17,422 nt of DNA from the IMG/VR virus record IMGVR_UViG_2667527582_000002. One strand, 5' to 3'. Numbering within the stretch: the stretch's first letter is position 1; each line of letters begins with the position of its first letter. Made by a program: the position numbers and the translations under genes. Positions 1 to 17,322 of the stretch are shown here, piece by piece. Under the pieces are notes generated by a model. It was not told where the DNA came from, made no database searches, and saw only the letters and a list, made by a program, of their open reading frames with translations. This DNA comes from a virus. Lineage: Duplodnaviria > Heunggongvirae > Uroviricota > Caudoviricetes.

Positions 1-414
1 TCAGAAAAAGATGATATTGAATCGCCCATTGAAAAACTGGAGGGCAGCGTCGCTGATCTGAATAAAAAATTGTCGGTGCTGATTCCTTCTGAAGATGAAA
101 AAAAACGCCGCGATGAGCAGTTTGCGGCGTTTTACGATTATTGCATTGAAGTTACTCTCGCAGGAATTTTGTGAAGATTTTTGAGGAGGGTAAATCTCTT
201 CAGTAAGCTTAATGGCGGACGCTGCAATTAATTCAGGAAGGTCCGCAAGGTCATCTGTCAGTGGATATGATGAAAAATCGGCGGCAGTTCTGTTAAGAAG
301 CGCTTTAACTAATTCCTTTTCCTTCTCCGGCAACAAGTTGATTAGAGCTACGACTGCTTGCCTGAGTGCGATTAAATCAGCAAAAGTTTGTTTAGGTAGA
401 TTTGTGTAATCCAT
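1..414 (-). CDS. hypothetical protein, divergent from the lysis cassette; identity unknown
   Basis: Complete 137-codon ORF with ATG at 412-414 (minus strand) preceded by a GAGG Shine-Dalgarno 5 nt upstream. The N-terminal ~80 aa look like a genuine acidic, helical protein. The C-terminal ~55 aa are F/I/R-rich, low-complexity and lie antisense to a protein-like + strand reading frame (1-174), so the true extent is uncertain. Confidence 0.35.
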   Translation of the reverse strand: MDYTNLPKQTFADLIALRQAVVALINLLPEKEKELVKALLNRTAADFSSYPLTDDLADLPELIAASAIKLTEEIYPPQKSSQNSCESNFNAIIVKRRKLLIAAFFFIFRRNQHRQFFIQISDAALQFFNGRFNIIFF

Positions 415-527
415 AGTCGCCTCTGTGTTTATCAGATTGACATCCTCCTCCCGCCAGTGCCCATCACTGGTGAGGTAAGATTTAACATATCCGGGGATTT
501 GAAGCCGATAAATCCTGATAAATATCC

Positions 528-1555
<1,028 letters not shown>

Positions 1556-1806
1556 ATTAATATTAAATCGGATTATTTTTAGCGCTGAATGTGAAATTTA
1601 AATAAAAAGGACTCTTCCATGAGTCAAAATCCTTGAAATCTTAAGGGTAAGATAAAAGGTCATTAGACAGAATGACACGTTTTATTAATAAATAAAGCTA
1701 TTGTTTCATTCGTGTGTTTTTCTTTACAAAAGTAATCCTTGCTATGGTTGGTTAATCATGCGTTAATGGTGTTCTGGTTTGTTACAAAATTATCTGAAGC
1801 AGTCAT

Positions 1807-1815
1807 TGTTATAAT
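1807..1815 (+). promoter_or_regulatory. candidate sigma70 promoter for the cold-shock gene (extended -10 TGtTATAAT) with ~100-nt 5' UTR
   Basis: TGTTATAAT at 1807-1815 matches the extended -10 consensus. No good -35 at 17-bp spacing. Lies in a 360-bp AT-rich leader upstream of the csp start, consistent with the long 5' UTRs of CspA-family genes. Confidence 0.3.
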
Positions 1816-1918
1816 TTTATTATTTGTACCTCTTGAGATTTCCTTGTTGGTTTTTCTCTCTGATATTTTTTTTCGGACCATTCTGCCCAAGGGCTAACTT
1901 CTTCAAAAGGTAATAATG

Positions 1919-2131
1919 ATGTCTAACAAAATGACTGGTTTAGTGAAATGGTTTAACCCTGAAAAAGGTTTTGGTTTCATCACGCCGAAAGATGGTAGCA
2001 AAGATGTGTTTGTCCATTTCTCAGCTATTCAGAGCAACGATTTCAAAACGTTAACTGAGAATCAGGAAGTCGAATTTGGTATTGAGAACGGACCTAAAGG
2101 CCCCGCGGCTGTTCATGTTGTGGCACTTTGA
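1919..2131 (+). CDS. cspI: CspA-family cold-shock protein (prophage-borne, CspI-like)
   Basis: 70 aa, [23 protein letters not shown]...VHFSAI with RNP1 (KGFGFI) and RNP2 (VFVHF) motifs. Position directly downstream of the R/Rz lysis genes matches the Qin-prophage arrangement. ATG 1916 is an alternative start. Confidence 0.85.
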
Positions 2132-2330
2132 GGTAGAAAATATTACAAACCATATTCACTTTAGATGCCCGTGTTGCCATGGTTCTCAGTATAGAACATC
2201 ATCTTTTGATGTTTCTGACAGGAATCCTTTCGGGGCAAAATGTATCTTTTGTAAATCAATGATGATTACATTTGATAATATTTCACAATACTTAAATGTT
2301 AGCCGTCTATCGTTAGATTTAAGAAAGTGA
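2115..2330 (+). CDS. small Cys-rich zinc-ribbon-like protein (possibly YnfQ/YmcF-like, from memory only), overlapping the 3' end of the csp gene
   Basis: ORF in another frame overlapping the last 17 nt of the csp gene. Motif C-P-C-C-H...(x21)...C-x2-C ([10 protein letters not shown]...AKCIFCK) suggests a metal-binding ribbon. No obvious Shine-Dalgarno, so translational coupling is possible. Followed directly by a terminator. Confidence 0.45.
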
Positions 2331-2335
2331 AAATG

Positions 2336-2358
2336 AAGGCTCCTTCGGGAGCTTTTTT
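2336..2358 (+). terminator. rho-independent terminator (GCTCC-UUCG-GGAGC + U6)
   Basis: Perfect 5-bp GC stem (extendable by A-U and G-U pairs) with a UUCG tetraloop, followed by TTTTTT. Lies 6 nt after the stop of the mini-ORF. Confidence 0.6.
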
Positions 2359-2478
2359 GCTTAGTGTCTAGTCGATGGATACTCACATATTACGGTAACA
2401 TTATGAAAAAAAATAATAGTTTTTTTTAACTCTGAACCAGCAATGGTAGTGCCAGTGATGACCGGAGTTAACACCATC

Positions 2479-2634
2479 ATGCGTGAATATCCAAATGGCG
2501 AAACAACACACCTCACTGTAATGGCTGCAGGGTTTCCATCTCTGACCGGAGATCATAAAGTCATTTATGTAGCAGCGGATCGACATGTAACTTCAGAAGA
2601 AATTCTGGAAGCAGCAATGAGACTCTTGAATTGA
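2479..2634 (+). CDS. small prophage protein (51 aa), YnfN-like by position
   Basis: ORF MREYPNGETTHLTVMAAGFPSLTGDHKVIYVAADRHVTSEEILEAAMRLLN. Sits between the csp and gns genes as ynfN does in Qin. Start chosen as the third in-frame ATG; ATG 2443 and 2458 are alternatives. No independent motif evidence. Confidence 0.45.
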   Translation: MREYPNGETTHLTVMAAGFPSLTGDHKVIYVAADRHVTSEEILEAAMRLLN

Positions 2635-2751
2635 TTTGATTCTAATGCATTGATAATAAATGATAATCATCTTTATCTGTTTGTGTGAAATTTAGACCGT
2701 CGTATGTTGATTATTGCGATGTTTCATCTTATCTTTTATACGTTTGCTCCA

Positions 2752-2757
2752 TATAAT
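2752..2757 (+). promoter_or_regulatory. candidate -10 hexamer (TATAAT) upstream of the gns-like gene
   Basis: Perfect TATAAT about 50 nt upstream of the gns-like start. No convincing -35. Confidence 0.25.
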
Positions 2758-2806
2758 TGACACTACTGTGTACCAGGAAAGTCATAACAGACTAAAAGAG
2801 GAAATG

Positions 2807-2980
2807 ATGAACATTGAAGAGTTAAAAACAAAAACAGAAGCAGATATTTCTGAATATATAACAAAAAAAATCATTGAGCTTAAGAAAAAGACCGGGAAAG
2901 AAGTTACCAGTATCCAGTTTACTGCACGGGAAAAAATGACTGGTCTTGAAAGCTATGATATCAAGATTGATTTAATCTAG
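2807..2980 (+). CDS. gnsB: GnsA/GnsB-family small protein (prophage GnsB-like)
   Basis: 57 aa, MNIEELKTKTEADISEYITKKIIELKKKTGKEV...FTAREKMTGLESYDIKIDLI, recognisably the Gns family. Strong Shine-Dalgarno (AGAGGA) 4-7 nt upstream. Confidence 0.75.
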   Translation: MNIEELKTKTEADISEYITKKIIELKKKTGKEVTSIQFTAREKMTGLESYDIKIDLI

Positions 2981-3040
2981 TCTGTTTAGTATTAGCATCA
3001 ATTTCTCATCAGATGCTATTCAACAATACAAATTACCCAT

Positions 3041-3066
3041 AAACCTCGTTTTTACGGGGTTTTGTT
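3041..3066 (+). terminator. probable rho-independent terminator after the gns-like gene
   Basis: Stem CCUCG/CGGGG (one G-U pair), 6-nt loop, followed by TTTTGTTATATTT. Confidence 0.4.
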
Positions 3067-3273
3067 ATATTTAAACATTACCGAATAGGTATAAATCTCG
3101 ATTGTCGATGGTATTGGTTGTGTGACAATACCTAGTCTTTCCGGTATGCCTGAAGAGAATACAAACGACAGATTATGTAAGGGAAACGCGCTGAATCTTT
3201 AACTCTTTCATGCTGAGTGATTTGACGTTATATTTTTAGCCGTAAGTGAAGAGCAAACGCATGGAGCGACAAA

Positions 3274-3480
3274 ATGCATAAAGATCAATACACTGATGCC
3301 CCCTCCCAGGAGCAGGTTCGTGTAAAAACTATGCTTAATAGCACCATTTCGATGGGTTACCCGGATGTTGTAATTGCATGTATAGAACATCAAGTGTCTC
3401 TGGAAGCATTCAGGGCAATTGAGGCCGCGTTAGTAAAGCACGATAAGAATACGAAGGATTATTCCCTGGTGGTTGACTGA
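3274..3480 (+). CDS. hypothetical small protein (68 aa), orphan moron ORF just upstream of cos
   Basis: ATG preceded by GGAG 8 nt upstream. The translation ([18 protein letters not shown]...) is not low-complexity. No recognisable motif. Confidence 0.4.
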
Positions 3481-3834
3481 TCACCATAACTGCTAACCAT
3501 TCTGACCATTTCACAAGTGACAGAGTCAATATCGTATTCTGTCACTGTCAGGCTAATACAGCAATGCAATTCAACTACAGCAATGCCTCGTATTTAGGTG
3601 AATTTACAATATCGTCCAGTTCGGATGCCGGCTGCATTTCTGAAGATAAGGCATTTCGGTTCTCGTATTTTCCCCTCATGCTCGTCAGTCCTGCGCGTAG
3701 TAAGAAACAGGACACTCACACTAATTTGTGTGGGCATGCTGTGATGTCCTTCTGAATTATCCCCATGCCATTATGTAAAGCTCTGTTTCAGATGCTCGTC
3801 ACGGTTGTCAGGCTGTCGGGTCCTCCCAGTGGGG

Positions 3835-3870
3835 GTCCCTGCCACGGGGCGGGAGCGTCGCGGAAAAAGG
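3835..3870. other. putative cos site (cosN-like cohesive-end sequence), about 185 bp upstream of the small-terminase start
   Basis: CACGGGGCGGGAGCGTCGCGG at 3843-3863 resembles the lambda cos junction as I recall it (TACG-GGGCGGCGACCT-CGCGG). That gives a putative 12-nt cohesive end GGGCGGGAGCGT at 3847-3858 with 9/12 identity. The downstream ~170 bp is AT-rich, like cosB, and its distance to Nu1 matches lambda. Confidence 0.5.
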
Positions 3871-4042
3871 CTAGTTTTTGCATTTCCATGGCGGCGGCAG
3901 CATGTTTGGTAATTTATTGATAATTAAAAGTTATTTCTCTTTTCAGCTGTACAATATTTTTTTCTCCCTGTCATTAGACTAGTTTGCAATTAATTGAAAT
4001 ATATAAATAAACCTGATTTTCACCTGCCAGATGGAGTTGCTT

Positions 4043-4570
4043 ATGTCAAATGTGAGCGGGATCGGTGATGCTTATTACTGGAGTGTTTTTAAAATCGCCG
4101 AGGCCTTTGGGCTTCACTGGGACACAGTAAAAAAACGGCTCCTCGCGGCCAACACTCCTGTGGCTGCGACTGTCAGGGGGAACCCCGTTTACGCCCTGCA
4201 GCATGTCGGGCCTGCCCTGTTTAGTGTGAAGCATGAGGCAGCAGACTCTGTTCATGATCCATCCCGTATGGAGCCGAAAGAGAGAAAGGACTGGTACCAG
4301 TCGGAAAATGAAAGGATCAAGCTGGAAAAGGAGCAGCGAAAACTCATCCCCGTTGATGAAGTAGTCATCGTCTATTCGTCCATGAGAAAGGCTGTCGTCC
4401 AGGTTCTGGAGACAATTCCGGATGTTCTTGAACGCGATTGCGCCCTGACTCCTCAGGCCGTTGGCGTTGTACAGCAGGCCATTGATGACCTGCGATACAC
4501 TCTTCAGGAAAAATCCTACGAGGCTTGTGCTGCTGAATTAATTCCTGATGAGGAAGGAGAGAGTCTCTAG
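4043..4570 (+). CDS. terminase small subunit (lambda Nu1-like; NohA/NohD-type)
   Basis: Lies immediately upstream of the large terminase and downstream of the cos-like sequence. Start at ATG 4043 with GGAG 6 nt upstream. The N-terminal HTH-type assignment and the Nu1 family call rest on position and recalled similarity, with no conserved motif checked. Confidence 0.75.
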   Translation: MSNVSGIGDAYYWSVFKIAEAFGLHWDTVKKRLLAANTPVAATVRGNPVYALQHVGPALFSVKHEAADSVHDPSRMEPKERKDWYQSENERIKLEKEQRKLIPVDEVVIVYSSMRKAVVQVLETIPDVLERDCALTPQAVGVVQQAIDDLRYTLQEKSYEACAAELIPDEEGESL

Positions 4571-4578
4571 GAGGAATA

Positions 4579-6678
4579 ATGGGTTTTTCATCAGCCCGAA
4601 ATTTGGGAAGGGACATATCGGCAGGATTTTCCCCACCACGTCGCATGCCGATTTCGGAGGCTGTTAAAAAATTCATGCGTGTTCCCAAGGGGGCTGGTAA
4701 CTCGGTGCCATGGGATCCTGAACTGACACCCTACATCATTGAGCCCATGAACTGCCTGGCATCGCGTGAATACGATGCGGTGATTTTTGTTGGTCCTGCG
4801 CGAACAGGGAAGACCATTGGTCTGATCGATGGATGGATTGTCTATACCATCGTTTGCGATCCTTCGGACATGCTCGTTGTGCAGATGACCGAAGATAAGG
4901 CCCGCGAGCATTCAAAAAAGCGCCTCGACAGAACGTTCAGAAGCAGTGCGGCGGTAAAGAAAAGAATGAGTCCACGTCGTAATGACAATAATGTCCATGA
5001 TAAGACGTTCAGGGATGGCTCGTTCCTTAAAATTGGTTGGCCCTCGGTCAACATTATGTCGTCGTCGGATTACCGGTTTGTCGCCTTAACCGATTACGAC
5101 CGTTTTCCGGAGAATATCGACAGCGAGGGTGATGGTTTCTCCCTGGCCTCAAAACGTACCACCACATTTATGTCCGCCGGGATGACTCTGGTGGAGAGCT
5201 CGCCGGGACGTGACATCTGCGACAGCAAATGGCGACGTAAGTCGCCTCATGAAGCGCCACCGACGACTGGTATTCTTTCCCTTTACAATCGTGGTGACCG
5301 CCGCCGCTGGTACTGGCCATGTCCGCACTGCGGTGAATATTTTCAGCCAGCCATGGATGCCATGACCGGCTACCGTAATGAACCGGATCCCTTTAAAGCC
5401 AGTGAGGCGGCGTATCTACTTTGCCCGCACTGCAGCGGCATTATCACGGCGGAGAAAAAGCGTGAGCTCAATAGTGCAGGAGTCTGGTTGCGTGAAGGTC
5501 AGGTCATTGATTGTAACGGCAACGTTTCCGGTGAACCGCGCCGCTCCCGTATCGCCAGTTTCTGGATGGAAGGGCCAGCTGCTGCGTATCAGACCTGGGC
5601 GCAACTGGTTTACAAATTACTGACTGCAGAACAGGAGTATGAAGCGACAGGAAGTGAAGAAACACTCAGGGCGGTTATCAACACCGACTGGGGATTACCT
5701 TATCTTCCCCGCGCCAGCATGGAGCAACGAAAAAGTGAACTGCTTGAGCAGCGGGCAGAGCCAGTTCCTTCCCGCAGTGTGCCGGATGGCGTTAATTTTC
5801 TTGTGGCGACAGTGGATGTGCAGGCGGGACGTCATCGCCGTTTTGTGGTTCAGGTAACGGGCTATGGCAGCCGTGGCGAACGCTGGATTATTGATCGTTA
5901 CAACATCACGCAGTCATTGCGCGGTGACAGCGACGGGGAGAGCCAGCGAATTGATCCGGCCAGCTATCCGGAAGACTGGGATGTCCTGCTGACGGATGTT
6001 TTTCATAAAAGCTGGCCGCTGGCCTCCGATCCTTCTCAACAAATGCGACTGATGGCAATGGCGGTGGACTCCGGCGGTGAAGACGGGGTCACTGATAATG
6101 CCTATAAATTCTGGCGTCGTTGCCGTCGTGATGGCCTTGGTAAACGTATTTACCTGTTTAAGGGCGACAGCATCCGGCGCGCAAAACTGATCACCCGTAC
6201 ATTCCCTGATAACACCGGACGAACGGGCCGACGGGCGCAGGCCGCAGGTGATGTGCCGCTCTGGCTTCTTCAGACGGATGCACTGAAAGACCGGGTGAAT
6301 AACGCGTTATGGCGTGACTCGCCAGGTCCCGGCTATGTGCATTTCCCTGACTGGCTGGGGAGCTGGTTTTACGACGAACTGACGTATGAAGAGCGGAGCA
6401 GTGACGGGAAATGGAGTAAGCCGGGTCGCGGTGCCAACGAAGCTTTTGACCTGATGGTGTATGCCGAGGCTCTGGTCATTCTGCATGGATACGAAAAGAT
6501 CCGCTGGCCGGATGCACCGGAGTGGGCGAGCCGGGAAACCTGGCTGGAGTGTGTCCCGGACAGTACCGAACCGTCATCCTCACCGGAACCGGTATCCACG
6601 CCTGTTAAAAAACAAAAACGGAAGAAAACAGTAACTGACGATGTTAACCCCTGGCTGACTTCCGGAGGATGGTTATGA
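4579..6678 (+). CDS. terminase large subunit (lambda gpA-like)
   Basis: 699 aa, AGGAGG 6 nt upstream of the ATG. Walker A motif VGPARTGKT, and a CPHCG motif as in lambda gpA. Position is between Nu1-like and W/portal genes. Confidence 0.92.
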   Translation: MGFSSARNLGRDISAGFSPPRRMPISEAVKKFMRVPKGAGNSVPWDPELTPYIIEPMNCLASREYDAVIFVGPARTGKTIGLIDGWIVYTIVCDPSDMLVVQMTEDKAREHSKKRLDRTFRSSAAVKKRMSPRRNDNNVHDKTFRDGSFLKIGWPSVNIMSSSDYRFVALTDYDRFPENIDSEGDGFSLASKRTTTFMSAGMTLVESSPGRDICDSKWRRKSPHEAPPTTGILSLYNRGDRRRWYWPCPHCGEYFQPAMDAMTGYRNEPDPFKASEAAYLLCPHCSGIITAEKKRELNSAGVWLREGQVIDCNGNVSGEPRRSRIASFWMEGPAAAYQTWAQLVYKLLTAEQEYEATGSEETLRAVINTDWGLPYLPRASMEQRKSELLEQRAEPVPSRSVPDGVNFLVATVDVQAGRHRRFVVQVTGYGSRGERWIIDRYNITQSLRGDSDGESQRIDPASYPEDWDVLLTDVFHKSWPLASDPSQQMRLMAMAVDSGGEDGVTDNAYKFWRRCRRDGLGKRIYLFKGDSIRRAKLITRTFPDNTGRTGRRAQAAGDVPLWLLQTDALKDRVNNALWRDSPGPGYVHFPDWLGSWFYDELTYEERSSDGKWSKPGRGANEAFDLMVYAEALVILHGYEKIRWPDAPEWASRETWLECVPDSTEPSSSPEPVSTPVKKQKRKKTVTDDVNPWLTSGGWL

Positions 6679-6887
6679 ACCAGAATGATATCGAAGCCAT
6701 GATTCAGCGTTATACGGAAGCTGAAATGGCGGTGCTGGACGGAAAATCCGTCACCTTTAATGGTCAGCAGATGACCATGGAAAACTTATCTGAGATCCGG
6801 CAGGGACGGCAGGAGTGGGAGCGCCGCCTTGCGGCTCTGATTACACGACGACGGGGGCATCCCGGGTATCGGCTGGCGAGGTTCTGA
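6675..6887 (+). CDS. head-tail joining protein (lambda gpW-like)
   Basis: 70 aa. Start ATG overlaps the terminase stop (ATGA), with GGAGG 6 nt upstream. C-terminus ITRRRGHPGYRLARF resembles the lambda W C-terminus (QRRRGPAGF). Confidence 0.7.
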   Translation: MNQNDIEAMIQRYTEAEMAVLDGKSVTFNGQQMTMENLSEIRQGRQEWERRLAALITRRRGHPGYRLARF

Positions 6888-8395
6888 TGGCAATTCTTGA
6901 TGATGTGATTGGCGTTTTTTCACCAGGATGGAAAGCGGCAAGGCTGCGTTCCCGTGCGGTGATCCAGGCTTATGAGGCCGTAAAAACGACGCGGACACAC
7001 AAAGCCCGACGGGAGAACCGAACTGCCGACCAGTTAAGCCAGTACGGGGCCGTGTCGTTACGTGAGCAGGCCCGTTACCTTGATAACAACCACGATCTGG
7101 TTATTGGTGTATTTGACAAGCTGGAAGAACGGGTGGTGGGGAAAAACGGGATTATTGTCGAGCCACATCCGGTATTACGCAATGGGGCCATTGCCCGTGA
7201 CCTGGCTGCGGAGATTCGCACCCGATGGAGTGAATGGTCTGTCAGCCCGGAAGTCACCGGGCAGTTTACCCGTCCGATGCTGGAACGTCTGATGCTTCGT
7301 ACCTGGCTGCGCGATGGTGAGGTGTTTGCCCAGATGGTTTCCGGGCGCATAAACAGCCTGACGCCTTCTGCCGGTGTTCATTTCTGGCTGGAGGCGCTCG
7401 AGCCGGACTTTATTCCCATGACCAGTGATGAGAGCAACAGGCTGAATCAGGGCGTGTTTGTTGATGACTGGGGGCGTCCCGAAAAATATCTGGTGTATAA
7501 AAGCCGTCCCGTATCCGGACGGCAGATGGAAACCAAAGAAGTGGATGCAGAGCGAATGCTGCATCTTAAATTTGTTCGCCGTCTGCACCAGATGCGCGGG
7601 ACGTCTTTATTGTCCGGTGTGCTGATCCGCCTCAGTGCTCTGAAAGAGTATGAAGATTCTGAGCTGACTGCAGCAAGGATCGCCGCTGCTCTGGGGATGT
7701 ACATCCGGAAAGGCGACGGGCAGAGCTATGAAGCGGATGGTAATGGCAGCAAGGATAAGGAACGCGAGCTTACCATTCAGCCAGGCATTATTTACGATGA
7801 TCTGAAACCCGGCGAAGAAATCGGAATGGTGAAGTCGGATCGCCCCAATCCTAACCTTGAAACTTTTCGTAATGGTCAGTTGCGTGCCGTGGCGGCGGGC
7901 AGTCGTCTGAGTTTTTCCAGTACAGCGCGCAACTATAACGGCACTTACAGCGCCCAGCGTCAGGAGCTGGTTGAATCCACTGATGGCTACCTGATCCTGC
8001 AGGACTGGTTTATTGGTGCCGTCACCCGTCCGATGTATCGTGCCTGGCTGAAACAGGCTGTGGCATCCGGTGTTATCAGGCTACCCCGCGATCTTGACCG
8101 TTCTTCACTGTATACCGCGGTGTATTCCGGACCGGTGATGCCGTGGATTGACCCTGTTAAGGAGGCTGAGGCCTGGAAAATCCAGATTCGTGGTGGAGCG
8201 GCGACAGAATCAGACTGGGTACGTGCTGGTGGTCGTAATCCGGATGATGTCAAACGTCGGCGCAAGGCCGAAATTGATGAAAACCGCAAGCTGGATCTGG
8301 TATTTGATACCGATCCGGCCAGTGATAAAGGAGGCAGCAGTGCCGCAACGAAACGACATGAGCCGCAGCACACCGACGACCAGTCCGAAGAATAA
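6887..8395 (+). CDS. portal protein (lambda gpB-like)
   Basis: 502 aa. ATG overlaps the W stop (TGATG). Size and position between W and the protease/capsid gene fit the lambda-type portal. The ORF-track extension to 6815 is upstream of the likely start. Confidence 0.88.
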   Translation: MAILDDVIGVFSPGWKAARLRSRAVIQAYEAVKTTRTHKARRENRTADQLSQYGAVSLREQARYLDNNHDLVIGVFDKLEERVVGKNGIIVEPHPVLRNGAIARDLAAEIRTRWSEWSVSPEVTGQFTRPMLERLMLRTWLRDGEVFAQMVSGRINSLTPSAGVHFWLEALEPDFIPMTSDESNRLNQGVFVDDWGRPEKYLVYKSRPVSGRQMETKEVDAERMLHLKFVRRLHQMRGTSLLSGVLIRLSALKEYEDSELTAARIAAALGMYIRKGDGQSYEADGNGSKDKERELTIQPGIIYDDLKPGEEIGMVKSDRPNPNLETFRNGQLRAVAAGSRLSFSSTARNYNGTYSAQRQELVESTDGYLILQDWFIGAVTRPMYRAWLKQAVASGVIRLPRDLDRSSLYTAVYSGPVMPWIDPVKEAEAWKIQIRGGAATESDWVRAGGRNPDDVKRRRKAEIDENRKLDLVFDTDPASDKGGSSAATKRHEPQHTDDQSEE

Positions 8396-10367
8396 TTCCT
8401 GGTTCAGGATGCAGGCTGGTCACCAGAGTGACGCGGATATTTATATTTATGACGAGATTGGTTTCTGGGGTGTTACAGCGAAGCAGTTTATCAGTGATCT
8501 GAATGCACTGGGCGATATCACCCACATTAATCTCCATATTAATTCACCGGGTGGCGATGTCTTTGAAGGCATCGCCATTTTTAATGCGCTGAAAACACAT
8601 GGTGCGTCCATTACCGTTTATGTCGACGGTGTGGCGGCGTCAATGGCGTCGGTCATTGCGATGGTGGGAAACCCGGTCATTATGCCGGAAAACACCTTCA
8701 TGATGATTCATAAACCATTTGGCTTTACGGGCGGTGATGCGGAGGACATGCGCACCTATGCCGACCTGCTCGATAAAGTTGAGGCGGTTCTGTTACCCGC
8801 TTATGCACAGAAAACCGGGAAAACCACCGATGAAATTGCTGCCATGCTGGCGGATGAGACCTGGATGTCCGGTGCCGAATGTCTGGCACATGGATTTGCT
8901 GATCAGGTAACGCCAGCCGTTAAGGCAATGGCATGTATTCAGTCAAAACGTACAGAGGAATTTAAAAAGATGCCGGAATCCATTCGAAACATGATTACTC
9001 CGCCACGCAACAGTGCTCCACGCGTACAGGATAATGAACCTGAAGCCTCCCGGACGCCAGTGCAGGCAGCAGCACCCGTGGTGGATGAAAACAGCATCCG
9101 TGCGCAGGTACTGGCAGAGCAAAAAGCGCGTGTAAACGGTATTAATGATCTGTTTGCCATGTTTGGCGGGCGTTATCAGACGCTGCAGGCTCAGTGTCTT
9201 GCCGATCCTGAATGTTCGCTGGAGCAGGCCCGCGAAAAGCTGTTGAACGAGATGGGGCGCGAGTCCACGCCATCCAATAAAAATACCCCGGCTCATATTT
9301 ATGCCGGTAACGGTAATTTTGTGGGGGACGGGATCCGCCAGGCGCTGATGGCGCGTGCCGGATTTGAAAAAACCGAACGTGATAATGTCTACAACGGGAT
9401 GACCCTGCGTGAATATGCCCGTATGTCACTGACTGAACGGGGTATTGGGGTTTCCAGTTATAACCCGATGCAGATGGTCGGTGCGGCGTTCACACACAGT
9501 ACGTCTGACTTCGGTAATATTCTGCTGGATGTTGCGAACAAAGCCATTCTGCAGGGCTGGGAAGATGCCCCTGAAACCTATGAACAGTGGACGCGGAAAG
9601 GTCAGTTGTCTGATTTTAAAATTGCCCATCGTGTGGGTATGGGTGGCTTCAGTGCTCTGCGTCAGGTGCGTGAAGGGGCGGAATATAAATACGTCACCAC
9701 CGGAGATAAACAGGCCACTATTGCACTGGCGACCTATGGCGAGCTGTTCAGTATCACCCGTCAGGCCATTATCAATGATGATCTGAATATGCTGACCGAT
9801 GTCCCGATGAAACTGGGCCGTGCGGCGAAATCCACTATTGCCGATCTGGTTTATGCCATTCTGACGTCTAACCCGAAAATCTCCACAGATAATGTAAGTC
9901 TGTTCGATAAAGCGAAACATGCAAACGTACTGGAGAGCGCTGCAATGGACGTGGCATCGCTGGATAAAGCCCGCCAGTTGATGCGCGTTCAGAAAGAGGG
10001 GGAGCGTCATCTGAATATTCGTCCTGCGTTCGTACTGGTACCGACGGCGATGGAGTCTGTTGCTAACCAGGTCATTCGCTCCTCAAGTGTCAAGGGGGCT
10101 GACATTAACGCCGGTATTATTAACCCGGTGAAAGATTTTGCGACCGTTATTGCAGAGCCTCGTCTTGATGATAACAGCCAGACCACCTTCTACCTGGCTG
10201 CGTCAAAAGGCTCCGATACGATTGAAGTGGCTTATCTCAACGGTGTGGATACGCCATATATTGATCAGATGGAGGGCTTCAGTGTGGATGGCGTGACAAC
10301 GAAAGTGCGTATTGACGCCGGTGTCGCGCCAGTTGATCACCGCGGTCTGGTGAAATGTACGGCGTAA
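8340..10367 (+). CDS. fused prohead protease (ClpP-like) / scaffold / major capsid protein
   Basis: Single uninterrupted frame. GTG 8340 (GGAGG 5 nt upstream) or ATG 8358 as start. The N-terminal ~200 aa carry a ClpP-like serine-protease signature (INSPGGDVFEGIAIFNAL...MASVIAMVG...MIHKP). A middle Ala/Gln/Glu-rich segment is scaffold-like. The C-terminal ~300 aa are assigned as the major capsid domain by size and position. Confidence 0.85.
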   Translation: MPQRNDMSRSTPTTSPKNNSWFRMQAGHQSDADIYIYDEIGFWGVTAKQFISDLNALGDITHINLHINSPGGDVFEGIAIFNALKTHGASITVYVDGVAASMASVIAMVGNPVIMPENTFMMIHKPFGFTGGDAEDMRTYADLLDKVEAVLLPAYAQKTGKTTDEIAAMLADETWMSGAECLAHGFADQVTPAVKAMACIQSKRTEEFKKMPESIRNMITPPRNSAPRVQDNEPEASRTPVQAAAPVVDENSIRAQVLAEQKARVNGINDLFAMFGGRYQTLQAQCLADPECSLEQAREKLLNEMGRESTPSNKNTPAHIYAGNGNFVGDGIRQALMARAGFEKTERDNVYNGMTLREYARMSLTERGIGVSSYNPMQMVGAAFTHSTSDFGNILLDVANKAILQGWEDAPETYEQWTRKGQLSDFKIAHRVGMGGFSALRQVREGAEYKYVTTGDKQATIALATYGELFSITRQAIINDDLNMLTDVPMKLGRAAKSTIADLVYAILTSNPKISTDNVSLFDKAKHANVLESAAMDVASLDKARQLMRVQKEGERHLNIRPAFVLVPTAMESVANQVIRSSSVKGADINAGIINPVKDFATVIAEPRLDDNSQTTFYLAASKGSDTIEVAYLNGVDTPYIDQMEGFSVDGVTTKVRIDAGVAPVDHRGLVKCTA

Positions 10368-10390
10368 ACGTCGCAGACAACAACTCTGAT

Positions 10391-10410
10391 GGCCCGTAAG
10401 GGCTTTTTTT
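10391..10410 (+). terminator. weak rho-independent terminator/attenuator after the capsid gene (GCCC-GUAA-GGGC + U7)
   Basis: 4-5-bp GC stem with a GNRA tetraloop followed by TTTTTTT. A second 7-bp GC hairpin (CAGCCCC-TGAAC-GGGGCTG) lies at 10422-10440. Confidence 0.4.
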
Positions 10411-10453
10411 GTACCTGAAATCAGCCCCTGAACGGGGCTGTGCGGAGACAGTT

Positions 10454-10777
10454 ATGGCAAAGAATTTTGTAGAAGAAGGAAAAACGGTGGCGATTGTTGC
10501 CAGTGCAGCCATCAGCAGCGGAGATCTGGTGCAGGTGGGTGATGTTTTTGCGGTGGCGCTGACCGATATTCCACAGGGTGAAACAGGCGACGGCATGACC
10601 GAAGGTGTGTTTATCCTGCCTAAACTGAAAACGGATGACATGAAAACGGGTAAGAAGGTTTATCTGAAGTCCGGAAAAGTTCAGCTGACTAACAGCGGCT
10701 CTGATCCGCTGGTCGGGGTTGTCTGGGCAGATGCCGGAACCAGTGCAGAAGAAGTGCCGGTAAAACTCAATGTCTGA
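10454..10777 (+). CDS. small head-associated protein (107 aa), possible decoration or head-completion protein (DUF2190-like, from memory)
   Basis: GGAG 6 nt upstream of the ATG. Gly/Val-rich small protein immediately after the capsid gene. No clear lambda gpD similarity. Confidence 0.55.
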   Translation: MAKNFVEEGKTVAIVASAAISSGDLVQVGDVFAVALTDIPQGETGDGMTEGVFILPKLKTDDMKTGKKVYLKSGKVQLTNSGSDPLVGVVWADAGTSAEEVPVKLNV

Positions 10778-11045
10778 TCCCTTTTCCCGGCTGGCAGCGC
10801 GTATGGATGCGATCACGGTCAGAAAGATGGGAAAGACAGCCTCGATTAATGATGTCGATATGGCTGTGATCCCGGGCGAAACACTGGCAGAGCTGAATGC
10901 TCTGTCCGGACCTGCGGTCTCTCTGGTGGTGTTTTCTTCGGGATACCGCCCACGGCGCGGGGATCGCGTTGTTTATGACGGACAACAATGGACGGTCACA
11001 CGGCATGAACGTTTTAACGGTAAGCCAATGATCTTTATTGAGTAA
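10770..11045 (+). CDS. head-tail connector / head completion protein (lambda gpFII-like)
   Basis: 91 aa. Start overlaps the upstream stop (ATGTCTGA). C-terminal motif PRRGDRVVYDGQQWTVTRHERFNG resembles lambda FII (LRRGDTLTIGEENFWVDRVSPDDGG). Confidence 0.55.
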   Translation: MSDPFSRLAARMDAITVRKMGKTASINDVDMAVIPGETLAELNALSGPAVSLVVFSSGYRPRRGDRVVYDGQQWTVTRHERFNGKPMIFIE

Positions 11046-11056
11046 AGAGGTGTGGG

Positions 11057-11635
11057 ATGAAGGGGCTTGAGAATGCCATCCGCAATCTGAACAGCCTTGA
11101 TACCCGTATGGTGCCACAGGCCAGCGCATGGGCGATAAACCGTGTGGCACAGAAAGCGGTCTCGGTTGCCACCCGGCAGGTTGCCGGGAATACCGTTGCG
11201 GGAGATAACCAGGTGAAAGGGATCCCCCTGAAACTGGTACGTCAGCGTGTCCGGGTGTTTAAAGCCAGTCCGTCAGGAAAAATGACGGCCAGGATCCGCG
11301 TTAACCGGGGCAATCTGCCCGCCATTAAGCTGGGGACAGCCCGGGTCAGACTGGCCCGGCGTGGTGGAAAACTGCAGTACCGTGGCAGTGTGCTGAAGGT
11401 GGGTAAATATCTTTTCCGGGATGCGTTTATTCAGCAACTGGCGAATGGTCGCTGGCATGTGATGCGGCGTATTGATGGCAAAAATCGTTACCCCATTGAT
11501 GTGGTGAAAATCCCGCTTTCCGGACCGCTGACACAGGCATTTGAAGATGCCCGCGACCGCATCATTGCTGCGGAAATGCCGAAACAGCTGGGGTATGCAC
11601 TGAAACAACAACTGAGGTTATGGCTGACCCGATGA
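11057..11635 (+). CDS. tail completion protein (lambda gpZ-like)
   Basis: 192 aa, the same length as lambda Z. Segment FIQQLANGRWHVMRRIDGKNRYPIDVVKIP is near-identical to lambda Z (FIQQLKNGRWHVMQRVAGKNRYPIDVVKIP). Confidence 0.88.
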   Translation: MKGLENAIRNLNSLDTRMVPQASAWAINRVAQKAVSVATRQVAGNTVAGDNQVKGIPLKLVRQRVRVFKASPSGKMTARIRVNRGNLPAIKLGTARVRLARRGGKLQYRGSVLKVGKYLFRDAFIQQLANGRWHVMRRIDGKNRYPIDVVKIPLSGPLTQAFEDARDRIIAAEMPKQLGYALKQQLRLWLTR

Positions 11636-12033
11636 ACCGACATACACAAATCCGCCAGGCCGTACTGGCACGCCTTCGGGAACAGTGTGGAGACAGCGCC
11701 ACGTTTTTTGACGGGCTTCCGGCATTTATTGATGCGCAGGAACTGCCTGCCGTGGCGGTGTGGCTGAGTGATGCTCAGTACACCGGAAAAATGACGGATG
11801 AAGATGACTGGCAGGCTGTTCTGCATATTGCTGTCTTCATCCGGGCACAGGCACCGGATTCAGAGCTGGATATGTGGATGGAGAGCACCATTTTCCCGGC
11901 TCTGAATGATATACCGGCACTTTCCGGACTCATCGACACCCTGATCCCTCTCGGTTTTAACTATCAACGTGATAATGAGATGGCCACCTGGGCGATGGCG
12001 GAAATCACGTACCAGATCACGTACACGAATTAA
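11632..12033 (+). CDS. tail terminator protein (lambda gpU-like)
   Basis: 133 aa. ATG overlaps the Z stop (ATGA). ATFFDG...PAVAVWL...PDSELDMWMES...IPALS align with lambda U (ATFFDG...PAVAVYL...PDSELDAWMES...IPALS). Confidence 0.88.
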   Translation: MNRHTQIRQAVLARLREQCGDSATFFDGLPAFIDAQELPAVAVWLSDAQYTGKMTDEDDWQAVLHIAVFIRAQAPDSELDMWMESTIFPALNDIPALSGLIDTLIPLGFNYQRDNEMATWAMAEITYQITYTN

Positions 12034-12044
12034 AGGAGGTGGCA

Positions 12045-12788
12045 ATGACCACACCAAATCCACTGGCAAAAACGAAAGGTGCGGGAACGACGTTCTGGAT
12101 GTACACCGGCAAGGGCGATGCGTTTGCGAACCCTTTATCGGACACTGACTGGCTGCGTCTTGCGATGGTGAAGGATCTGCAACCTGGCGAAATGACCGCT
12201 GATGCAGAAGATGACACTTATCTCGATGATGAAGATGCAGACTGGAAAACGACAACCCAGGGGCAGAAATCCGTCGGTGATACTTCGGCGACGCTGGCCT
12301 GGCGTCCGGGTGACAGCGGACAGAAAAAACTGGTTCAGTTGTTCGACTCCGGTGAAGTCTGCGCGTTTCGTATCAAATATCCCAACGGCACTGTTGATGT
12401 TTTCCGTGGCTGGCTGAGCTCACTGGGTAAAACCATTGCCTCAAAAGACGTGATGACCCACACAGTGAAAATCAGCGGTGTGGGGCGTCCGTATCTGGCA
12501 GAGGAAGGCACTGAAACAGTGAGCGTTACCGGGCTGACGGTGGCACCGGCATCTGCCAGTGTAAAAGTGGGAGCAACCACCACGCTGACCTTTACAGTAA
12601 AACCTGACGGAGCCAGTGACAAAGCGATCAGTGTGCATTCGACAGATCCACAGACTGCCACGGTGACCCTGAACGGGCTTGTGGCCACGGTGAAAGGCGT
12701 GAAGCAGGGCAGTGTCAGCATTGTGGGCATGACTTCTGACGGCGATTTTGTGGCAGTGGCTGCGGTGGCTGTCAGCGCCGCAGGTTAA
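12045..12788 (+). CDS. major tail protein (lambda gpV-like) with C-terminal Ig-like domain
   Basis: 247 aa, AGGAGG 5 nt upstream. KGAGTT(F/L)W(M/V)Y...ANPLSD.DW...YLDDEDADW...NGTVDVFRGW match lambda V. C-terminal Thr/Val-rich Big_2-like segment. Confidence 0.92.
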   Translation: MTTPNPLAKTKGAGTTFWMYTGKGDAFANPLSDTDWLRLAMVKDLQPGEMTADAEDDTYLDDEDADWKTTTQGQKSVGDTSATLAWRPGDSGQKKLVQLFDSGEVCAFRIKYPNGTVDVFRGWLSSLGKTIASKDVMTHTVKISGVGRPYLAEEGTETVSVTGLTVAPASASVKVGATTTLTFTVKPDGASDKAISVHSTDPQTATVTLNGLVATVKGVKQGSVSIVGMTSDGDFVAVAAVAVSAAG

Positions 12789-12808
12789 CAGGACGATACT
12801 CATCATTT

Positions 12809-12832
12809 GCCCCGGTTATCCGGGGCTTTTTT
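12809..12832 (+). terminator. strong rho-independent terminator between the V-like and G-like genes (GCCCCGG-UUAU-CCGGGGC + U6)
   Basis: Perfect 7-bp GC stem, 4-nt loop, followed by TTTTTT. Confidence 0.7.
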
Positions 12833-12845
12833 GCAGGTGGAGAAC

Positions 12846-13235
12846 ATGATGTTTCTGAAACAGGGCACGTTTAATTATGAAAAGCAGTCCGTGGTGCTCA
12901 GTGAGCTGTCCGGGCTGCAGAGAATTGAATATCTGGCGTTTGTTCAGCAGCGAACGGCAAAGTTTGATGCCGAAGAGGGAGAACTGCCGGAGGCTGAACG
13001 ACAGATTGCTTTTCTGCGGATGGGGATGGATATCAATGCCTGGCTGGTTTCCCGCTCACTGTGGAATGCGGAACAGTCTCAGGATGTTGAGACGCTTTGC
13101 GCATCCGTTATTACAACATGGTCGTATGATGCCCTGGGAGCGGGGGCGGAGATGGTTCTGTCGCTGAGCGGTATGGGAGCCATTGAGAATGCCGGGGATT
13201 TGGAGCATGAGGTGCTGACGCCGGAAAAGTCCTGA
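12846..13235 (+). CDS. tail assembly chaperone (lambda gpG-like)
   Basis: 129 aa. MMFLK...SELSGLQRIEYLAF... parallels lambda G (MFLK...SELSALQRIEHLAL). Ends at TGA 13233-13235 just after a slippery sequence. Confidence 0.8.
   Translation: MMFLKQGTFNYEKQSVVLSELSGLQRIEYLAFVQQRTAKFDAEEGELPEAERQIAFLRMGMDINAWLVSRSLWNAEQSQDVETLCASVITTWSYDALGAGAEMVLSLSGMGAIENAGDLEHEVLTPEKS
13223..13229 (+). promoter_or_regulatory. putative -1 programmed ribosomal frameshift site (G GAA AAG) producing a G-T fusion
   Basis: Heptamer GGAAAAG in the G frame, 4 nt before the G stop. The -1 frame (T frame) is open from 13211 through 13573. Same position as the lambda G/GT slip site (GGGAAAG). Confidence 0.5.
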
Positions 13236-13573
13236 CGCGGGAAATGCAGTTTGTCATGCGGCTTGCCCGGGAGTTCAGGCGGGCAGACTGGCGGCGGATG
13301 CTGTCGGAAATGTCGGCCACTGAGCTTGGTGAGTGGGGCGATTATTTCCGGATGCAGAGCTTCAGTGATGTGTGGATGGATGCGCAGTTTGCCTCGCTGA
13401 AGGCATTGATCGTGAGAATGGTGTCCGGCAGCAGTGATGCTGCGGTGGCTGATTTCAGCCTTTTACCGGAAGAGAACGGGATACCGGAGCGAACGGACGA
13501 AGAACTGATGCATCTTGGGGAAGGTATTTCCGGAGGTGTGCGTTATGGACCAGATAGCCAACCTGGTCATTGA
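13223..13573 (+). CDS. T-frame portion of the tail assembly chaperone G-T fusion (lambda gpGT-like), in the -1 frame relative to G
   Basis: ORF in the -1 frame relative to G, open upstream past the G stop. Probably expressed only as a G-T fusion (12846..13573 with a -1 shift near 13226-13229). Lies directly upstream of the tape measure gene. Confidence 0.65.
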   Translation, partial: GKVLTREMQFVMRLAREFRRADWRRMLSEMSATELGEWGDYFRMQSFSDVWMDAQFASLKALIVRMVSGSSDAAVADFSLLPEENGIPERTDEELMHLGEGISGGVRYGPDSQPGH

Positions 13574-16500: not shown

Positions 16501-16610
16501 TAGGTCCGGCTGCCCTGAAGGTGGTTTATGACCTTGGGAAAAAAGCGGCAGCGGACTTTATGCAACAGCAGGCCCGTGATGGTGGTCGGTTAAGTGGAGC
16601 ATATCGGTAA
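13545..16610 (+). CDS. tail tape measure protein (lambda gpH-like)
   Basis: 1021 aa, GGAGG 8 nt upstream of ATG 13545. N-terminus (LVIDLGIDAAEF) and C-terminus (NNDGTNGQIGPAALKVVYD...RDGG) match lambda H. Long internal Gln/Glu/Arg/Lys-rich coiled-coil region. Confidence 0.92.
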   Translation: MDQIANLVIDLGIDAAEFKNEIPRIKNLLNGAASDAERSSARMQRFMERQTQAARQTTQAASSAATAASVHAQTVEKNAQAHERMAREVEKTRQRMEALSQKMREEQAQAMALAEAQDKAAAAFYRQIDSVKQASAGLQELQRIQQQIRQARNSGGIGQQDYLALISEVTAKTRVLTQAEEEATRQKVAFIRQLKEQATRQNLSSSELLRAKAAQLGVSSAAEVYIRKMEQAGKATHSLGLKSAAARQEIGVLIGELARGNLGALRGSGITLANRAGWIDTLMSPKGMMLGGVIGGIAASVYGLGKAWYDGQKEGEEFNRQLSLTGHYAGVTAGQLWTLSRAISGNGITQHAAAGVLAQVVGSGAFRGNDIGMVARAAAQMERSVGQSVSDTINQFKRLKDDPVNAAKALDNELHFLTATQLEQIRVLGDQGRSSDAARIAMSALAEETGRRTADIDNNLNALGSTLKYLSDLWSRFWDAAMNIGREDSLDEQIAALQEKVSRAKRLPWTASSSQVEYDQQRLNDLQEKKRQKDLQDAKEQAERNYQEQQKRRNAENAALNRMNETEAARHQREIARINAMQYADQAVRDAAIQRENERYEKALASGKKKTRETRNDEATRLLLQYSQQQAQVEGQIAAARQSAGIATEKMTEAHKQLLALQQRISDLDGKKLTADEKSVLARKDELIQALTLLDVKQQELQKQTALNDLKKKTIQLTSQLAEEELAQRQQHDLDIATVGMGDQQRQRYQVQLSLRQKYQQQLEQLRRDSEQKGTYNTDDYRKAEQALTESLNRQLNENRRYWQQLEVVQGNWKNGVLRAFQDFTVDADNTAGTAEQVFSSAFSNMGNGLATFVTTGKLNFKSFTSSVLSDMAKILAQATMMKSIKGIGSVLGFDLSSLSLNANGGIYQSADLSRYSGTVVNRPTFFAFAKGAGVMGEAGPEAILPLRRGADGKLGVVADIGGSGMAMFAPQYNIEINNDGTNGQIGPAALKVVYDLGKKAAADFMQQQARDGGRLSGAYR

Positions 16611-16939
16611 TGGAGACGTTTCACTGGAAAGTGCGCCCGGATATGAATGTGGTATCAGAGCCGAAAGTGGTGACAGTGAAGCTGGGCGATGGTTATGAAC
16701 AGCGTCGTGCGGCGGGACTGAATAACCAGTTGTCGACTTACAGCGTGACGATACGTGTTCGTAAATGTGAACACCCATCTTTAAAAGCCTTTCTGGAACG
16801 GCACGGTGGCGTCCGCGCATTTCAGTGGACGCCACCTTATGACTGGAAGCCGATCAGGGTGGTTTGTCGTAAATGGTCGGCAAGCGTGGGGGCGTTGTGG
16901 GTAACCATAACGGCAGATTTTGAACAGGTCGTGGCATAG
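16610..16939 (+). CDS. minor tail protein (lambda gpM-like)
   Basis: 109 aa, the same length as lambda M. ATG overlaps the H stop (TAATG). FHWKVRP...GDGYEQR...TYSVT...HGG...WTPPYDW...EFEQVV align with lambda M. Confidence 0.9.
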   Translation: METFHWKVRPDMNVVSEPKVVTVKLGDGYEQRRAAGLNNQLSTYSVTIRVRKCEHPSLKAFLERHGGVRAFQWTPPYDWKPIRVVCRKWSASVGALWVTITADFEQVVA

Positions 16940-16948
16940 GAGTCTCTG

Positions 16949-17312
16949 ATGCAGGATATTCCACAGGAAACACATCATGAGACGACACGCCTCACTCAGT
17001 CAGCCCAGGTGGTGCTCTGGGAAATCGATCTGACAGTGGTCGGTGGAGAACGTTATTTTTTCTGTAATGAGCAGAACGAAAAAGGTGAGCCGATCACCTG
17101 GCAGGGGCGACAGTATCAGGCGTATCCCATTCAGGGGACGGGATTTGAACTGAACGGCAAGGGCAGTGCTGCCCGTCCGACACTGACGGTTTCTAACCTG
17201 CACGGCATGGTCACCGCGATGGCGGAAGACCTGCAGAGTCTGGTCGGAGGAACGGTGGTCCGGCGTAAGGTTTACGCCCGTTTTCTGGATGCGGTGAACT
17301 TCGTCAACGGAA
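16949..17312 (+). CDS. minor tail protein (lambda gpL-like), 5' portion interrupted by an N-run
   Basis: AGGAG upstream. MQDI.QET...VVLWEIDLT.VGGERYFFCNEQNEKGEP.TWQGRQYQ.YPIQG.GFELNGKG...RPTLTVSNL.GMVT.MAED.QSLVGGTVVRRKVYARFLDAVNFVNG is near-identical to lambda L residues 1-121. The reading frame runs into the N-run at 17313. Confidence 0.88.
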
Positions 17313-17322
17313 NNNNNNNNNN
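17313..17322. other. assembly gap (10 x N)
   Basis: Run of ten N characters. The sequence after it does not continue the gpL-like protein. Confidence 0.95.

Follow-up and report, generated by a model that had tools for sequence, protein, structure and literature searches.

A close described relative of the locus considered here belongs to the Qin prophage of Escherichia coli K-12, whose curated gene order is rzpQ-cspI-ynfQ-ynfR-ynfN-gnsB(-ydfO-ynfO-nohA). The locus itself lies in virus record IMGVR_UViG_2667527582_000002 (Caudoviricetes). The whole of this stretch, 17,422 nt, is called the window and supplies all coordinates; the island under study, 1556-3480, is situated between the lysis gene Rz and the cohesive end site cos. 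An earlier note, made from the letters alone, had taken it for an AT-rich moron island of five small genes. We conclude that 1556-3107 very probably represents the Qin type of cargo cassette for cold shock and membrane adaptation that E. coli lambdoid phages carry, here placed co-directionally in the late operon.

Qin and the window have in common the genes themselves, their order and orientation, the position after Rz, the CspI protein, the ATT start of ynfQ and both terminators. They differ in that ydfO and ynfO, not ybcW, precede the terminase remnant of Qin, that ynfR is intact there (21 aa), and that ynfN is frameshifted at a T-run (T7) in Qin and at an A-run (A8) here; moreover, the packaging and head module of the prophage in the window, unlike that of Qin, appears complete. 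The same cassette is found between Rz and cos in four functional lambdoid phages: Tritos, the prophage of strain LF82 (92% identical), mEp460_ev081 and HannyBb (99%), and 2H10. Unlike the window, all four have an intact 76-aa ynfN frame, and in Tritos an extra gene of opposite orientation, ybcV (DUF1398), separates gnsB from ybcW.

A paralogous cassette, cspG-ymcF-ymcE-gnsA, resides on the K-12 chromosome. It likewise consists of a csp gene, an ATT-started YmcF 10 nt downstream, an embedded hairpin with U-tract and a Gns protein, and its DNA identity to the window is 74.7% for cspI-ynfQ and 72.8% for gnsB. However, its middle gene is ymcE (76 aa, overlapping both neighbours) in place of ynfR and ynfN, and YnfN and YmcE are without similarity. 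The chromosomal gnsA also lacks a separate AT-rich promoter spacer, and the locus is outside any prophage late operon.

A further comparison is provided by the morons of phage lambda. A moron, in the sense of Hendrix and colleagues, is reportedly a promoter-gene-terminator unit inserted in a late operon. In lambda, bor occupies the same slot as the cassette, between Rz and lambdap79, the homologue of ybcW. Like the cassette, the morons bor and lom are distinct in composition, are expressed autonomously in the lysogen and are tolerated through terminator-resistant late transcription; but bor and lambdap78 have the opposite orientation and their products are envelope-related, whereas the window contains several co-directional units for cold and stress adaptation. 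The cassette is already known, well annotated and widespread, and it is not a new kind of system. It illustrates the spread of stress-adaptation genes by temperate phages.

Composition, conservation and the case for cargo

The features of the cassette are as follows.

1556..1738, + strand: AT-rich spacer from Rz to the cspI promoter, about 30% G+C (fraction 0.303 over 1556-1918)
1739..1767, + strand: candidate cspI promoter, read from the sequence (-35 TTGCTA at 1739-1744, 17-nt spacer, extended -10 TGcGTTAAT at 1759-1767)
1761..2177, + strand: cspA-type thermoregulator, a long 5′ leader plus the csp coding region (Rfam RF01766)
1919..2131, + strand: cspI, a 70-aa CspA-family cold-shock protein (Pfam CSD PF00313, E = 1.6e-31; RefSeq cspI)
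2142..2330, + strand: ynfQ, a 62-aa four-Cys (CxxC...CxxC) zinc-ribbon-like small protein (Pfam YmcF-like PF23641)
2333..2371, + strand: ynfR remnant, 12 codons then TAG, beginning two nucleotides past ynfQ
2336..2358, + strand: intrinsic terminator 1, stem GGCTCC / GGAGCT with UUCG loop and six U, within ynfR codons 2-9
2403..2634, + strand: ynfN, ancestrally 76 aa (MKKIIVFFNSEPA...), frameshifted here by A8 (2406-2413) replacing A7
2753..2758, + strand: candidate -10 of a gnsB promoter, a perfect TATAAT with a weak -35, read from the sequence
2807..2980, + strand: gnsB, a 57-aa GnsA/GnsB-family protein (Pfam PF08178, E = 2.1e-33, 1-54 of 54)
3041..3072, + strand: intrinsic terminator 2, downstream of gnsB, a 9-bp stem with T-rich tail, from a terminator scan

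To the left of the island, a Pfam search identifies a lambdoid lysis module with endolysin at 528-1061 and Rz (DUF2514) at 1058-1555. The stop of Rz is about 2.3 kb from the cohesive end, cosN, after which come a DUF1441 small terminase (4031-4570) and a GpA-type large terminase (4579-6678). The five small open reading frames (ORFs) reported earlier between Rz and cos are all present in one orientation (csp, 1916/1919-2131; Cys-rich, ending at 2330; YnfN-like, 2479-2634; Gns-family, 2807-2980; 68 aa, 3274-3480; all on the + strand). The count of five left out a sixth, ynfR, of 12 codons (2333-2371). The csp and Gns-family assignments were correct, the genes being cspI and gnsB, with matches to Pfam CSD and PF08178.

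The island is also as AT-rich as had been claimed. Its G+C content is 35.9%, compared with 53.4% for the structural region 4031-17422. Windows of 1925 nt sliding over the structural genes average 53.7% (standard deviation 1.4, minimum 51.0), which places the island more than 12 standard deviations below them, and the 1925-nt window of lowest G+C in the entire sequence begins at 1463. G+C at third codon positions (GC3) is lower in the same way: 0.27-0.33 in ynfQ, ynfN and gnsB and 0.27-0.39 over the four cassette genes, with 0.45 in ybcW and 0.54-0.56 in the terminase genes. The lack of any compositional difference, which would have spoken against a foreign origin, was not observed.

The region is common in E. 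coli. It matches many chromosomes at 99.9% DNA identity across 100% of its length. Some match is present in 2645 of 5426 complete genomes, about half, and in 1066 of them, or one in five, at least 80% of the region is covered. Matching E. coli records are annotated rzpQ / cspI / ynfQ ("cold shock small protein YmcF") / ynfN / gnsB / hypothetical protein. In 80 related viral contigs, the order Rz-cspI-ynfQ-ynfN-gnsB-ybcW-cos holds without exception, to the extent that each contig covers it. As expected of a moron, the slot is filled differently in related phages, the composition is distinct and the insert has its own terminators, two in number. The classification as acquired accessory cargo is upheld by composition, by the mosaic slot, by the conserved terminators and by RNA-seq of the Tritos lysogen. 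The region can confidently be labelled a cspI-ynfQ-ynfR-ynfN-gnsB cold-shock cassette followed by ybcW.

It might be argued that the region is instead decaying leftover DNA with no current function, given that there is a nonsense codon in ynfR and a frameshift in ynfN, that about 17% of related ynfN alleles are frameshifted, and that, compared with Tritos and Qin, ybcV/ydfO has dropped out. Purifying selection speaks against this: the ratio of non-synonymous to synonymous differences (pN/pS), taken against the K-12 or Tritos counterparts, is well under 1 in all five ORFs and ranges from 0 to 0.47 (0.15 for ynfQ, 0.19 for the last 51 codons of ynfN, 0.20 for gnsB, and 0.47 for ybcW against Tritos), with cspI showing nine synonymous and no non-synonymous differences. 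In addition, gene order does not vary in the 80 loci, the promoter and leader of cspI are the most conserved part at 97.8%, and expression in lysogens is strong and regulated (LF82 RNA-seq). We consider decay scarcely credible.

Transcription units and the function of the cassette

At the 5′ end of the cassette, the sequence at 1739-1767 suggests a cspI promoter with transcription starting near 1774. This start is supported because the leader would then be 145 nt long, as published for cspI, a cold-induced gene (PMC6719143). The promoter segment is the same in K-12 and Tritos except for one spacer base (T1748 here, G in both); a consensus scan missed it because the second base of its -10 hexamer is not A. 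The thermoregulator match is to the full model (1-428) and scores 109.8 bits (E = 2.8e-28), the gathering score being 78. Experiments have established the cspI leader as an RNA thermometer in which the ribosome-binding site is hidden at 37 °C (PMC13271884). Promoter and leader together are the best-conserved segment of the island, more so than the cspI coding sequence (95.8%). With only synonymous differences between the two genes, the CspI protein is identical to that of K-12, and cspI mutants are outcompeted during long-term stationary phase. The upstream spacer, 1556-1738, is the least conserved part of the cassette (89.7% identity to K-12 and Tritos, versus 97.8% for promoter and leader). 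The ORF list and an Rfam search gave neither an ORF nor an Rfam family within it, and a terminator-like hairpin on the minus strand at 1610-1625 was not significant (z = -1.7); the spacer may serve as an UP-element-like upstream region.

The second gene, ynfQ, is the Cys-rich mini-protein of the earlier note, which is indeed present, although its annotated start is not a canonical one but an ATT (2142), 10 nt after the cspI stop and with GAGG 8 nt upstream. The same ATT start, giving 189 nt, is annotated for ynfQ in RefSeq and K-12, the chromosomal paralogue ymcF likewise begins with ATT, and the codon is present in all 79 related loci. Longer frames from TTG 2076 (the mechanical ORF) and ATG 2115 are open only in this lineage, since K-12 closes them with TAG. 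ORF finders miss the ATT start, a point that bears on annotation elsewhere. The product matches PF23641 over positions 1-61 of 62 (E = 6.3e-33), and its CPCC and CIFC motifs are invariant in an alignment with YnfQ and YmcF. Cold induction of YnfQ is listed in PMC11228462. The next gene, ynfR, is interrupted by TAG where K-12 and Tritos have TAT; there the alignment extends it to 21 aa, ending at the equivalent of 2398. The TAG occurs in 76 of 76 related loci of the lineage, and RefSeq labels the gene a pseudogene, 'too short'. In K-12, the tagged protein YnfR-SPA is strongly induced by cold shock (PMC6001520).

Terminator 1 starts 8 nt past the ynfQ stop codon and has a predicted stability of -14.5 kcal/mol (z = -2.84). 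The terminator scan listed its hairpin on the - strand only, leaving the T6 tail of the + strand unlisted. K-12 and Tritos have the structure unchanged, 78 of 80 related loci contain it, and in the chromosomal paralogue a hairpin with U-tract occupies the matching position after ymcF, within ymcE. Since the surroundings in the paralogue are only about 75% identical and the peptides encoded across the hairpin are not the same, what is conserved seems to be the RNA structure. The statement that the first two units end in terminators therefore holds in substance, the hairpins at 2336-2358 and 3041-3072 both being conserved in K-12 and Tritos; what it lacked is that the first is inside ynfR. We found no earlier description of the placement of these terminators within ynfR and ymcE, or of the recurrent homopolymer frameshifts in ynfN described below; both are minor points.

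Upstream of gnsB is a 172-bp spacer of 30.8% G+C, in which the TATAAT at 2753 is conserved in K-12 and Tritos. We infer a gnsB promoter there, although the consensus scan called none at this TATAAT. For the GnsB product, the solved structures of GnsA (4XO1 and 4XO2) give matches at E = 8e-20. In published work, gnsA on a plasmid restores or raises the proportion of unsaturated fatty acids, and the cold-sensitive growth of relA fadR mutants is rescued by gnsA or gnsB. Terminator 2 (-11 kcal/mol, z = -2.0) is identical in K-12 and Tritos. A 35-nt stretch right after the gnsB stop, 2982-3015, is absent in both and contains the inverted repeat AGCATC ... GATGCT.

The names given to gnsB raise another possibility, namely that it supplies the toxin in a toxin-antitoxin or abortive-infection module and the island is a stabilisation or anti-phage defence element. 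Pfam and RefSeq call the family 'GnsA/GnsB toxin of a toxin-antitoxin system', ymcE-gnsA appears in a list of E. coli type II toxin-antitoxin pairs, and a preprint describes raised persister counts upon gnsB over-expression. However, a YmcE-like partner is missing: YnfN and YmcE give no alignment at E <= 100, and the 172-bp spacer has no separate + strand ORF of at least 25 aa adjoining the gnsB start, its sole ORF being the in-frame TTG extension of gnsB itself (2714-2980). Among the PADLOC defence models, the only match is that of CspI to the generic cold-shock domain model CSD_V, at 54 bits (Pfam CSD scores 108), and the other four proteins have none. Plasmid-borne gnsB rescues growth instead of killing cells. 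We regard a toxin-antitoxin role as very unlikely.

Expression was assessed from published LF82 RNA-seq (ten samples), in which the Tritos prophage carries a cassette 91-92% identical to that of the window; genes were assigned by coordinates and length. In LB medium, mean values in fragments per kilobase per million (fpkm) for the cassette and ybcW were 955 for cspI, 51 for ynfN, 274 for gnsB, 9 for ybcV and 32 for ybcW, and those for the flanking genes were 8 for Rz, 6 for endolysin, 14 for the small and 8 for the large terminase. Over the ten samples, ynfN correlates with cspI (r = 0.91) at a level 7- to 30-fold lower (about 15-fold on average, a mean log2 difference of 3.9; 19-fold in LB), whereas cspI and gnsB are uncorrelated (r = 0.07), and gnsB is about 5-fold above ynfN in LB. 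Inside macrophages ybcW is raised about 30-fold (log2 fold change 4.9). In K-12, induction by AZT is 6.5-fold for cspI, 5.9-fold for ynfQ and 5.8-fold for ynfN, with similar SspA dependence. Tritos cspI and its neighbours have been classed as morons from lysogen transcriptomes, and by analogy the Tritos pattern, in which the cassette is up and the flanking late genes are silent, fits a moron here.

Because ynfN tracks cspI while cspI and gnsB are uncorrelated, ynfN is grouped with the former and gnsB is placed apart. Three units are probable: cspI-ynfQ, from which some transcripts leak through into ynfR-ynfN, and gnsB and ybcW each by itself. The three units and two terminators proposed earlier are thus kept, though the grouping is not the one that the earlier note seemed to have in mind. 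The claim that most functions are unknown needs similar adjustment: several functions or conditions of expression have been published (CspI, cold induction of YnfR and YnfQ, and an influence of GnsB on unsaturated fatty acids), whereas structure models of YbcW and YnfN led to no functional assignment.

The LF82 data have a labelling problem of their own. In PMC9928086 (Table 1 and S1 Table), LF82_0907 is called 'YnfN' and is 27-fold above background; its length and position (174 nt, 1610202-1610375) are those of gnsB. The S4 Table of the same paper names LF82_0907 GnsB, and the product labels of S1 are shifted by one row there. The true ynfN of LF82 (our locus L002) is LF82_3578, of 156 nt, which is about 5-fold lower than LF82_0907.

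Taken together, we suggest the following scenario. In the lysogen, a cspA-like promoter at about 1739-1767 would give an mRNA with a 145-nt thermosensing leader, which at low temperature would expose the ribosome-binding site and start codon and yield CspI, an RNA chaperone. YnfQ, a zinc-ribbon mini-protein, would be made from the same mRNA through its ATT start 10 nt downstream of cspI. The hairpin with its U6 tract after ynfQ would stop most transcripts, with a minority continuing into ynfR-ynfN. From the TATAAT-bearing AT-rich spacer, gnsB would be transcribed separately as far as terminator 2, and GnsB, when over-produced, raises the proportion of unsaturated fatty acids. As a third unit, ybcW would be regulated separately. 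In lambda, Q-modified RNA polymerase ignores terminators. During lytic growth of the phage considered here, such a polymerase starting at the late promoter should pass both terminators and cross cos into the head genes, and a co-directional promoter-gene-terminator insert would be tolerated because Q-modified polymerase ignores terminators. Of these elements, gene identities, composition, terminators, mosaic position and conservation are shown, as is lysogen transcription in a prophage 91-92% identical, whereas the promoter positions and both forms of read-through, past terminator 1 and in the late operon, are proposals for this phage.

Several observations weigh against reading the island as a Qin-type cold-shock cargo cassette. 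(i) Damage to ynfR and ynfN, two of the six genes, means that this copy is not fully intact. (ii) A further gene, ybcW, is shared with lambda and hence lies outside the mobile cargo. (iii) A sigma-70 consensus scan of 1400-4200 found six sites, compared with 7.9 expected by chance, and called none of the three proposed promoters and no + strand site outside ynfQ. (iv) The phenotypes of GnsB and GnsA are known from over-expression only. (v) The expression data stem from strains other than the one with this exact sequence, and the read-through model in particular relies on ten RNA-seq samples from one such strain, with gene labels reassigned by coordinates.

A related question is whether the cassette benefits the host or the phage. 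It could chiefly serve the phage, with CspI (RNA chaperone and antiterminator) and GnsB (a modifier of membrane lipids) made from the late transcript to sustain late expression, holin function or lysis in the cold. All genes are co-directional with the late operon between Rz and cos, the plaque-forming or inducible phages mEp460_ev081, HannyBb and Tritos keep the cassette with an intact 76-aa ynfN, and it remains linked to the lysis module while the head genes past cos are swapped. On the other hand, cspI and gnsB are expressed 30- to 120-fold above Rz and endolysin in the LF82 lysogen, lambda and many other lambdoid phages are without the cassette, and it persists in the defective Qin prophage of K-12. 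We find this explanation doubtful, though worth keeping in mind; it is compatible with a cold-shock and membrane-adaptation cargo cassette, and the two do not exclude each other.

Homopolymer frameshifts in ynfN

The YnfN-like 51-aa protein of the earlier note corresponds to a real ORF (2479-2634), which is however a remnant of a frameshifted 76-aa gene. The family frame of 76 aa beginning MKKIIVFF is not intact in the window, where A8 breaks it: the 5′ ORF ends after 8 codons, and what remains is an ORF of 63 aa (ATG 2443) or of 51 aa (ATG 2479). In this copy the +1 frameshift costs ynfN its first 25 codons. The extra A is the sole difference from E. coli CFSAN018748 across 1556-3480, and the 76-aa gene is intact in that strain and in Tritos, mEp460_ev081 and HannyBb. 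Further comparisons point to 76 aa as the original length: the N-terminal extension (MKKIIVFFNSEPA...) is also present in the most distant homologue found, P0146, and phrog_3425 has 76 positions. The C-terminal 51 aa of YnfN match phrog_3425 / phrog_4911 at E about 1e-36. In the K-12 and Tritos arrangement with full-length ynfR, the 76-aa ynfN starts 4 nt past the ynfR stop. The 51-aa YnfN annotated in K-12, which has served as the naming template, is also a truncated remnant of the 76-aa protein because of an independent T8-to-T7 change.

Two homopolymer runs, A8 at 2406-2413 and T8 at 2420-2427, lie within the first nine codons of ynfN (2403-2430). We surveyed its alleles among related prophages (including loci L008-L087), with the reservation that alleles seen only once could stem from misassembly. 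The frame is kept in 70 of 84 alleles (A7/T8); six are A8/T8 and eight are A7/T7, for a total of 14 (about 17%) frameshifted. The A8 alleles form one haplotype, which includes the window, whereas T7 is found in at least five backgrounds, K-12 among them, whose nearest neighbours have T8.

This pattern could reflect slipped-strand switching, as an alternative to simple decay of ynfN; slippage in the runs would then act as an on/off or long/short (76-/51-aa) switch. Terminator 1, for its part, may be a translation- or Csp-controlled attenuator: read-through into ynfN could be gated by ribosomes that terminate on ynfQ or initiate on ynfR, or by a Csp protein that opens the stem. If true, the attenuator would tie ynfN expression to cold-shock translation. 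We rate the two parts jointly as a rather unlikely speculation.

The YnfN family is restricted to Escherichia, with 38 clusters, and a search of the PDB with YnfN gave no match. An AlphaFold2 model of the 76-aa form shows, weakly, four strands and a helix, strand one being the extension that is lost here; its mean predicted local distance difference test score (pLDDT) of only 62 made it unfit for a fold search.

The mosaic joint, ybcW and the cohesive end

The right part of the slot contains three further features.

3108..3115, no strand: mosaic joint where blastn blocks end, with the Qin/Tritos-type cassette to the left and a lambda-shared segment to the right
3274..3480, + strand: ybcW-like 68-aa gene, the last ORF before cos (phrog_657, E = 4.6e-48, 1-68 of 68)
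3847..3858, + strand: putative cosN cohesive end GGGCGGGAGCGT, the right limit of the slot

One blastn block, 1401-3115, aligns with K-12 and Tritos at about 91.5%; another, 3108-3846, aligns with Tritos at 85%; and 3108-3625 is 80.6% identical in DNA to lambda 47579-48090. At the joint, Tritos has about 590 bp with ybcV on the opposite strand (K-12 has ydfO there, also DUF1398), and the window has neither. The slot from Rz to ybcW accordingly holds bor and lambdap78 in lambda, the cassette and ybcV in Tritos, and the cassette without ybcV in the window; in Qin, the cassette is followed by ydfO and ynfO where ybcW would be.

The 68-aa ORF had been called an orphan, which it is not. It is YbcW, a homologue of the last ORF of lambda, lambdap79 (47738-47944), and of Tritos YbcW, in the same position in both; recognising it as the last lambda ORF would improve annotation elsewhere. 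Given the 80.6% identity of its segment to the right end of lambda, ybcW is part of the conserved lambdoid backbone. On these sequence comparisons, four of the five genes are mosaic cargo, and ybcW belongs to the conserved lambdoid right end. An AlphaFold2 model of YbcW is a three-helix bundle (pLDDT 80, above 90 for core residues 11-50), and a fold search with it returned generic matches only and no specific structural relatives. Searching 1.8 billion cluster representatives gave 122 YbcW matches. Real diversity ends at about 45% identity, and many of the divergent matches inspected look like error-laden copies of lambda. Hundreds of clusters matching 3274-3477 come from ENA contigs of about 3.5 kb with frameshift-like scrambling of lambda sequence. 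These noisy clusters are probably reads of lambda control DNA from long-read sequencing, which inflate the size and diversity of the family.

A strong inverted repeat at 3516-3552 (GTGACAGAGTC...(G)ACTCTGTCAC-like; -19.5 kcal/mol, z = -2.7), which lacks a U-tract, follows the ybcW stop at a distance of 36 nt. It lies inside the lambda-shared segment 3108-3625 and could bind a protein or form a structure at an RNA 3′ end.

The top-strand nick of cosN is placed at 3846|3847 because the Tritos record ends at 3846 and the record of phage cdtI starts at 3847. The cohesive end of lambda we take to be GGGCGGCGACCT, and the resemblance of GGGCGGGAGCGT to it suggests a length of 12 nt. The window is 99.8% identical to the CFSAN018748 prophage over 1-3880; past that point, across the terminase genes, identity falls to about 73%. 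In the set of 80 related viral contigs, the arm comprising lysis genes, cassette, ybcW and cos is joined to at least two types of small terminase (24 and 21 contigs). Since identity drops there and the terminase types vary, a recombination joint lies at or just beyond cos (3847-3880).

Outside the island, sub-threshold Rfam matches to SNORA44 and GcvB were dismissed. A minus-strand ORF starting at 414 (97-415), between a truncated ydfR-like gene and endolysin, matches no family in a Pfam search. Two extra bases in the window, 155-156, account for its length of 137 aa, compared with the 86 aa annotated in CFSAN018748. With a strong minus-strand hairpin and U-tract at about 97-135 and a local G+C of about 42%, it resembles a second, opposite-strand cargo insert in the lysis module.

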